From Escherichia coli (GTDB lineage: Bacteria > Pseudomonadota > Gammaproteobacteria > Enterobacterales > Enterobacteriaceae): 64,000 nucleotides of DNA. Positions 27,001-28,011 of the stretch are shown here, piece by piece. The position numbers were made by a program. Location: assembly GCF_003334765.1 (NCBI RefSeq), contig NZ_QOWT01000001.1, one strand, 5' to 3'. Position 1 is the stretch's first letter. Each line of letters starts with the position of its first letter.

Positions 27001-28011
27001 TTTTGTTCGACCTCTGTTAAGGGTTTGCCGTGTGAGTGATGACCATGCGAAAAGGCAGGAGCGCTAACCATAAAGACACCTAAAGCAACAGCCAGTTTGT
27101 GAAGACGAATCGCCAAAACAGTTTCCTCCAGAGTCATTGTATATGATGTGTAATGTTATATTGTAACATATAACAAAATGCAACAACTCTTAGGAGACAA
27201 GAGAATAGTTCTCTCAGGTATGATTATCTATCTTATTGAAATAACATAAATTATGTTGGTAATTTGAGGTTGATGACAAACGAAACATAACCTGATGTGA
27301 TCTGCGTAGGCCGGATAGGGCGCTCGCGCCGCATCCGGCAGGGATAACGCGTACTTTGTCGGCAATATGAAGTTATACAGATAATTTGTTGTGAACCTGC
27401 TTGCGTAACCGGTTAAAAAGGGAACGCAACTTCTTATACCGTAAGGCTAAAAGCAGTAAAGCCAGCCCAGCGTAGATGAGCGGCTGCGGTGAAATAATCT
27501 TCACTGACCACAGATAATGTATTGGGGCCAGGATCGCGACAAGATAGACGAAATTATGCAACTGTTGCCAGTGCTTGCCGAGTTTTCGCTGCATCGCCTG
27601 GGTTGAAGTAAACGCTAAAGCAAGCAAAATAACCCAGCTGATAATTCCTAACGTTAAATAAGGCCGGGTAATTAACTCCTTGCCTAATAACGCCAGATTA
27701 TTCACGCCCAGCTCCAGCAATACGTAACTGGTTAAATGCAGTGTCGCCCAGGCAAAGCACCATAAGCCTAACAGGCGGCGAGTGCGTATCAATAACGGCT
27801 GTTTTGCGTAGCGTGCCAGAGGTGTGATTAACAAGGTCGCCAGCAAAAATTTCAGTGCAGTGCGACCGGTAAAATGCTGAATATCTTTCACCGGATCGGC
27901 ACCCAGTCCACCGTGATTGATCGCCCAGACCAGCCAGAGAAACGGCAACAATCCGGCAAGATGCAGGCTAACTTTCAGCCATGTCACCTGTTTTGCTGTC
28001 AGACGCATTCA

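Follow-up and report, generated by a model that had tools for sequence, protein, structure and literature searches.

Three Zur-controlled systems of Escherichia coli are the closest described relatives of the region analysed here, namely zinT (yodA, b1973) of strain K-12, the ykgM-ykgO operon and the znuABC Zur operator, for which a crystal structure of Zur bound to DNA has been reported (Gilston 2014, PMC4219657). zinT and znuABC share the same repressor and an RNNNY-based palindromic operator. At znuABC the operator overlaps the promoter, the DNA bound by Zur containing the extended -10 element, and repression operates by exclusion of RNA polymerase (PMC4219657), an arrangement that zinT appears to resemble. 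Unlike that of zinT, the znu operator serves divergent promoters; compared with PzinT it is bound about 150-fold more weakly by Zur and repressed about 7-fold rather than about 980-fold (PMC4219657). Binding of Zn-Zur to PzinT is cooperative and involves a dimer of dimers (Kd-app 0.053e-18 M^2), about 30 bp are protected, and zinT is repressed by Zur 984-fold in vivo in K-12 (PMC4219657). In the same study, the numbering of the RT-PCR primer 'zinT18_up' counts from the TTG start codon of the gene (PMC4219657). Another high-affinity Zur target is the ykgM-ykgO operon, which encodes type B L31/L36 (PMC4219657). The zinT gene of E. coli is served by an operator and promoter of its own and is unlinked to ykgMO, unlike the zinT of Proteus alimentorum.

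We analysed a stretch of 64,000 nucleotides of E. coli DNA (the window) that carries the zinc-scavenging gene zinT on the minus strand. What we see is very probably the ordinary control region of E. coli zinT (yodA), characterised previously, with initiation at the TTG at position 27116 (table 1). The TTG start, the Zur box, the 216-aa precursor and the cleavage of the signal peptide are already established and annotated for this gene. Compared with K-12 zinT, the 20-nt Zur box, the GGAGG, the 8-nt spacer, the TTG and the 216-aa length are identical, and the gene order msrP-msrQ-zinT-yodB-tRNA-Ser is the same. The window differs in carrying an ATG 21 nt before the start codon, where TTA stands in K-12, in three precursor residues (Y6H, I16M and T53K, in the numbering of the 216-aa form) and in a few substitutions upstream of the Zur box.

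Table 1. Positions and properties of the features of the zinT control region in the window.
Feature	Position	Strand	Description
zinT CDS	26466..27116	(-)	216 aa plus stop; periplasmic metal-binding protein; NCBIfam, PDB and RefSeq agree
Mechanical ORF	26466..27137	(-)	223 aa; first start codon is the ATG at 27137, stop at 26466
Signal peptide	27048..27116	(-)	23 codons from the TTG; end defined by mature PDB chains
TTG start codon of zinT	27114..27116	(-)	RefSeq CDS start; TTG/GTG conserved in 29 loci
Shine-Dalgarno GGAGG	27125..27129	(-)	8-nt spacer to the TTG (AAACTGTT)
In-frame upstream ATG	27135..27137	(-)	polymorphic leader triplet, not a start codon
Zur operator (Zur box)	27149..27168	(-)	20-nt match to TRWNAYRWTATAWYRTNWCA, 0 mismatches
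Palindromic Zur core TGTTACAATATAACA	27154-27168	(-)	15 bp, 14/15 match
Candidate extended -10 TGtTACAAT	27160..27168	(-)	inside the Zur box; putative, read from the sequence
Alternative -10 TATAAC	27155-27160	(-)	putative; with -35 TTGCAT at 27178-27183, 17-nt spacing

Annotation of zinT and its gene product

The 1-kb stretch around the zinT start found a match in 5,418 of 5,426 complete E. coli genomes, with 100% identity to E. coli C and to strains of the B lineage, in which the annotated features are zinT and msrQ. Read on the minus strand, the control region runs ...TTGCATtttgttataTGTTACAATATAACAttacacatcatatacaATGactctGGAGGaaactgttTTGgcgattcgt... In E. coli C, whose gene matches the window at 100%, the RefSeq zinT (WP_001007789.1) is 651 nt long and starts at the equivalent of window position 27116; the RefSeq CDS of K-12 MG1655 (b1973, NP_416482.1) is likewise 651 nt, or 216 aa, from the TTG. 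Five further RefSeq records, picked across the identity range (SCU-306, ST648, HS13-1, E57 and one O157:H7 strain), also contained a 651-nt zinT CDS. The annotated start was the TTG in 8/8 E. coli records examined, including the IS-disrupted gene of strain B379. The O157:H7 strain carries the ATG allele, yet its RefSeq CDS begins at the TTG.

The protein data agree with this annotation. The ZinT equivalog model NF007639 of NCBIfam was matched at 432.2 bits (cut-off 300), and its 214 positions begin to align 2-3 residues after the TTG, leaving the 7-residue extension uncovered. The 216-aa PDB entries 1S7D and 5YXC, which begin MAIRL, align to residue 8 of the 223-aa ORF (E = 2.3e-147 over 216 aa). 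The mature PDB chains 1OEE and 5AQ6 (193 aa) begin HGHHSHG, equivalent to residue 31 of the 223-aa ORF, and because the mature chains begin there the signal peptide counts 23 residues from the TTG. The predicted 23-residue peptide is of the n/h/c type and ends in AFS, and the His-rich mature N-terminus follows directly. N-terminal sequencing of mature ZinT, which has lost its signal peptide, cannot tell the ATG from the TTG.

The TTG follows the ATG in the same frame at a distance of exactly 21 nt, which gives the 216-aa product. The energies of the anti-SD duplex separate the two codons, with -9.3 kcal/mol for the TTG versus +2.7 kcal/mol for the ATG. The GGAGG was invariant in all E. coli alleles sampled, and the arrangement of GGAGG (GGAGA in E. 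albertii), N8 and TTG was kept in every Escherichia allele. The sequence-only reading had proposed this TTG, 21 bp downstream of the ATG, as a start with a GGAGG at suitable spacing; the motif, its 8-nt spacer and the duplex energy bear this out. The length of 216 aa that it had given for ZinT is that of NP_416482.1 and of PDB 1S7D/5YXC, and the comparison that it had suggested with the annotated N-terminus, which we ran, came out in favour of the TTG in both RefSeq and PDB.

In strain B379 (NZ_CP090456.1) the locus is disrupted. An IS3-family element, with a transposase CDS that contains a programmed frameshift, occupies about 2585-3920 of the retrieved sequence; its insertion point, the equivalent of window position about 27117, falls exactly between GGAGG and TTG of zinT. 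The gene is cut off from its Zur-controlled promoter and its SD, and PGAP still annotates a 651-nt zinT. The Zur box of this strain carries an A-to-C change (TGTTACACTATAACA).

Two observations concern the neighbouring genes in the window. The mechanical ORF of yodB (cytochrome b561; 25593-26153, minus strand) starts with TTG and encodes 186 aa, while RefSeq annotates 531 nt (176 aa) from an internal ATG (MNRFSKTQ...), so that the longest ORF and the curated start differ, as they do for zinT. The spacer between msrQ and zinT contains at 27309-27374 a GC-rich REP-type palindrome (gccggatgcggcgcgagcgccctatccggcc), with a sub-threshold Rfam match to naRNA4/CssrE (35.8 bits; gathering score 59.5). 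The palindrome probably represents an ordinary REP element situated downstream of msrQ.

The Zur operator and the predicted promoter

We searched the window with TRWNAYRWTATAWYRTNWCA, the 20-nt E. coli Zur search motif of Gilston 2014, which is quoted in PMC6103462 and whose rationale is given in PMC4219657. The motif matched the operator on both strands with no mismatch, and this was the sole site in the 64-kb window. When up to 2 mismatches were allowed, shuffled sequences gave a mean of 0.24 matches, and 0/100 shuffles reached the observed count. The older 23-bp gamma-proteobacterial Zur consensus, GAAATGTTATA-N-TATAACATTTC, fits the zinT site at 19/23 positions; searching with this consensus at no more than 3 mismatches gave no match, because the site has 4.

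Both candidate -10 elements of zinT lie inside the Zur box (table 1), and related zinT loci carry TTGnnn-17-TATAAC or TGtTATAnT at the corresponding place. A simple sigma-70 consensus scan called neither of the two; it called an upstream TTGTCA-18-CATAAT and one site on the opposite strand. The upstream site (10/12; 27250-27279, minus strand) is located about 80 nt upstream of the Zur box, and its second hexamer reads AATAAT in K-12. It could be a second zinT promoter that reads through the operator, or a chance match.

Because all plausible -10 hexamers are inside the Zur box, zinT transcription is predicted to start around 27154-27146. From such a start, the leader up to the UUG would measure about 30-38 nt and include the SD, and the stretch before the AUG would be an SD-less leader of about 9-17 nt. 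The zinT leader showed no significant RNA structure compared with shuffled sequence (z = +1.04) and no Rfam family above threshold, and on these two results we ruled out a hidden RNA element in it. Full-text literature searches returned no paper giving a mapped yodA/zinT transcription start, and the Cappable-seq and SMRT-Cappable-seq supplements held no zinT entry or nearby coordinate.

We further compared the distance between operator and start codon in orthologues from other genomes. A clear Zur box (at most 1 mismatch) was present in 49 loci, and in these the distance from the end of the box to the best-supported start had a median of 32 nt and was mostly 24-39 nt. In the window this gap is 32 nt for the TTG and 11 nt for the ATG, the latter below every orthologue. 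Should the promoter-like site at 27279-27250 be used, the leader would be long, and because this site exists the spacing argument alone is not airtight.

These results refine what had been read from the sequence at the outset. The Zur palindrome had been described as near-consensus, which is right for the 15-bp core and for the 20-nt motif and less so for the 23-mer. It had been placed 12 bp upstream of the first ATG, and its end at 27149 is indeed 12 positions from the A of the ATG at 27137, with 11 nt between them. The statement that this leaves no room for a 5' UTR proved too strict, as the predicted transcription start would leave the short leader given above; the logic of operator-to-start spacing holds in its comparative form, with the TTG at the orthologue median.

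In the mechanism that we propose, a dimer of dimers of Zn-loaded Zur would occupy the operator (27149-27168) when zinc is sufficient, and with the promoter -10 lying within the operator RNA polymerase would be excluded for as long as Zur is bound. When zinc is scarce, Zur would come off, and transcription would begin in the promoter-proximal arm of the box or directly after it, at about 27154-27146. The 30S subunit would then initiate at the UUG (27116) on an unstructured leader of about 30-38 nt that contains the GGAGG. The resulting 216-aa precursor would carry a 23-residue Sec signal peptide, which would be cut after AFS to leave the 193-aa mature protein from HGHHSHG.

The upstream ATG is a polymorphic leader triplet

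The triplet aligned with the window ATG is TTA in K-12 (in the context atacaTTAactctGGAGG), ST648, HS13-1, E57 and SCU-306, and also in B2-type strains. In K-12, an in-frame TAA further upstream together with the TTA makes the TTG the first possible start. Exact-word searches with 51-mers spanning the ATG site found the ATG-type allele in about 2,471 genomes (1,949 exact), the K-12-type TTA allele in about 1,696 and the B2-type TTA allele in about 1,416, counts that overlap slightly. The ATG is present in roughly 45% of complete E. coli genomes, and roughly 55% are without it.

Outside these strains, Escherichia sp. MOD1-EC7003, of a cryptic clade, has ATA at the position, and the ATG is absent in E. 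albertii. In the latter the leader between box and start is 27 nt rather than 32 nt; this difference of 5 nt is not a multiple of 3, so the reading frame is broken upstream of the SD. The ATA and the change in length in these outgroups indicate that the nucleotides preceding the SD do not evolve like coding DNA. The 21 nt between ATG and TTG thus behave as leader rather than as coding sequence. We conclude that the window ATG is a derived, non-conserved triplet which is in frame by chance, and that it is not the physiological start.

Both exact forms of ZinT, the 223-aa (ATG) and the 216-aa (TTG) form, are found in public protein databases under ZinT names, each on at least 1,000 contigs. With both lengths on record, automated gene callers evidently disagree on the start in strains with the ATG allele.

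The weak start codon is conserved across genera

To place the E. coli start in a wider context, we scanned species-representative genomes, which yielded 80 zinT loci. The codon 23 residues before the signal-peptidase site was TTG in 26 loci, GTG in 3 and ATG in none, covering about 13 genera. These loci come from Escherichia, Salmonella, Citrobacter, Atlantibacter, Serratia, Phytobacter and Enterobacter-like taxa, and further from Yokenella, Superficieibacter, Silvania, Huaxiibacter, Lelliottia and Pseudocitrobacter, the last with its start codon 22 instead of 23 residues before the cleavage site (the loci with TTG or GTG at this position include L003-L022, L026, L027, L032, L036, L041, L043, L062 and L080). 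Each TTG/GTG codon is preceded by a GAGG/GGAG-type SD with a duplex energy of -5.9 to -10.6 kcal/mol, and GAGGG-N7-TTG was read by eye in both L020 and L022. In more distant genera (Buttiauxella, Cedecea, Pantoea, Erwinia, Yersinia, Providencia, Proteus and Morganella), an ATG, occasionally a GTG, is found about 17-27 codons before the cleavage site.

Conservation of the TTG/GTG across the roughly 13 genera, in spite of divergence in the leader around it, hints at selection for a weak start in a gene that is very strongly derepressible.

The scan also revealed a different genetic arrangement of zinT in one Proteus locus. In P. alimentorum (locus L065, 746-1821), zinT has no Zur box of its own and starts 5 nt after the stop codon of a type B L36 (ykgO-like) gene, which is preceded by a type B L31 (ykgM-like) gene with a Zur box (TTGTTATATTATAACATTACA) upstream of it. 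The L31 and L36 proteins were confirmed by NCBIfam NF002462 and NF002021. From this gene order, zinT appears to be the third gene of a Zur-regulated operon for alternative ribosomal proteins. An L36-like sequence is also found immediately upstream of zinT in seven other Proteus/Morganella loci (L063, L064, L069, L073, L074, L076 and L079).

Alternative start sites

In strains that carry the ATG at 27137, its use as the true start, with a 223-aa precursor and a 30-residue signal peptide, is in our view very improbable. The codon is the first ATG of the ORF and occurs in about 45% of complete E. coli genomes, but no SD precedes it (+2.7 kcal/mol), its distance from the Zur box is 11 nt where the orthologue median is 32 nt, and RefSeq passes it over even in ATG-allele strains. 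The extension would moreover put two Glu residues into the n-region of the signal peptide, where such residues are atypical for Sec signals. At least 1,000 contigs in public databases have the 223-aa form; against this, the ATG is missing in K-12, B2-type strains, the cryptic clade and E. albertii, in which functional ZinT is made from the TTG (PDB, literature). Initiation at both codons in ATG-allele strains, mainly at the TTG and for a minor fraction at the 5'-proximal AUG, would yield some longer precursor and the same mature protein. The AUG shares the reading frame and is located about 9-17 nt from the predicted 5' end of a leader that is AU-rich and unstructured, and leaders of this kind can support weak SD-independent initiation. 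We nonetheless judge dual initiation decidedly unlikely, as the AUG is neither preceded by an SD nor conserved, and a ribosome positioned there would cover both the SD and the TTG, an arrangement for which nothing suggests selection.

The window offers one more candidate, an ATG at codon 16 of the 216-aa form (27071-27069), which would be an allele-specific start. Its use would remove the basic n-region from the signal peptide together with half of the hydrophobic core, although normal export and processing are published for the ZinT protein family, and the SD energies of candidates 14-16 residues before the cleavage site are weak. Codon 16 is ATT (Ile) in K-12. We ruled this ATG out on the loss of the signal peptide and the Ile in K-12, and the probability that we leave to it is negligible. 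The conclusion that zinT starts at the TTG at 27116 is drawn because of its SD, the polymorphism of the upstream ATG and the conservation across genera, and not because of the spacing alone.

Implications for zinT

It may be that the TTG start has been kept by selection, perhaps throttling translation from a promoter that derepresses ~1,000-fold, and that the AUG is possibly a functional variant, modulating output or giving a minor 223-aa precursor, rather than a neutral one. We consider this unlikely. For annotation, the 216-aa form is the one to keep, since the ATG is polymorphic and the SD, the TTG and the 32-nt distance between operator and start are conserved. Ab initio callers extend zinT by 7 codons in the ~45% of E. 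coli strains with the ATG allele. The biological significance of these results is small, and consistency of annotation is the sole practical point.
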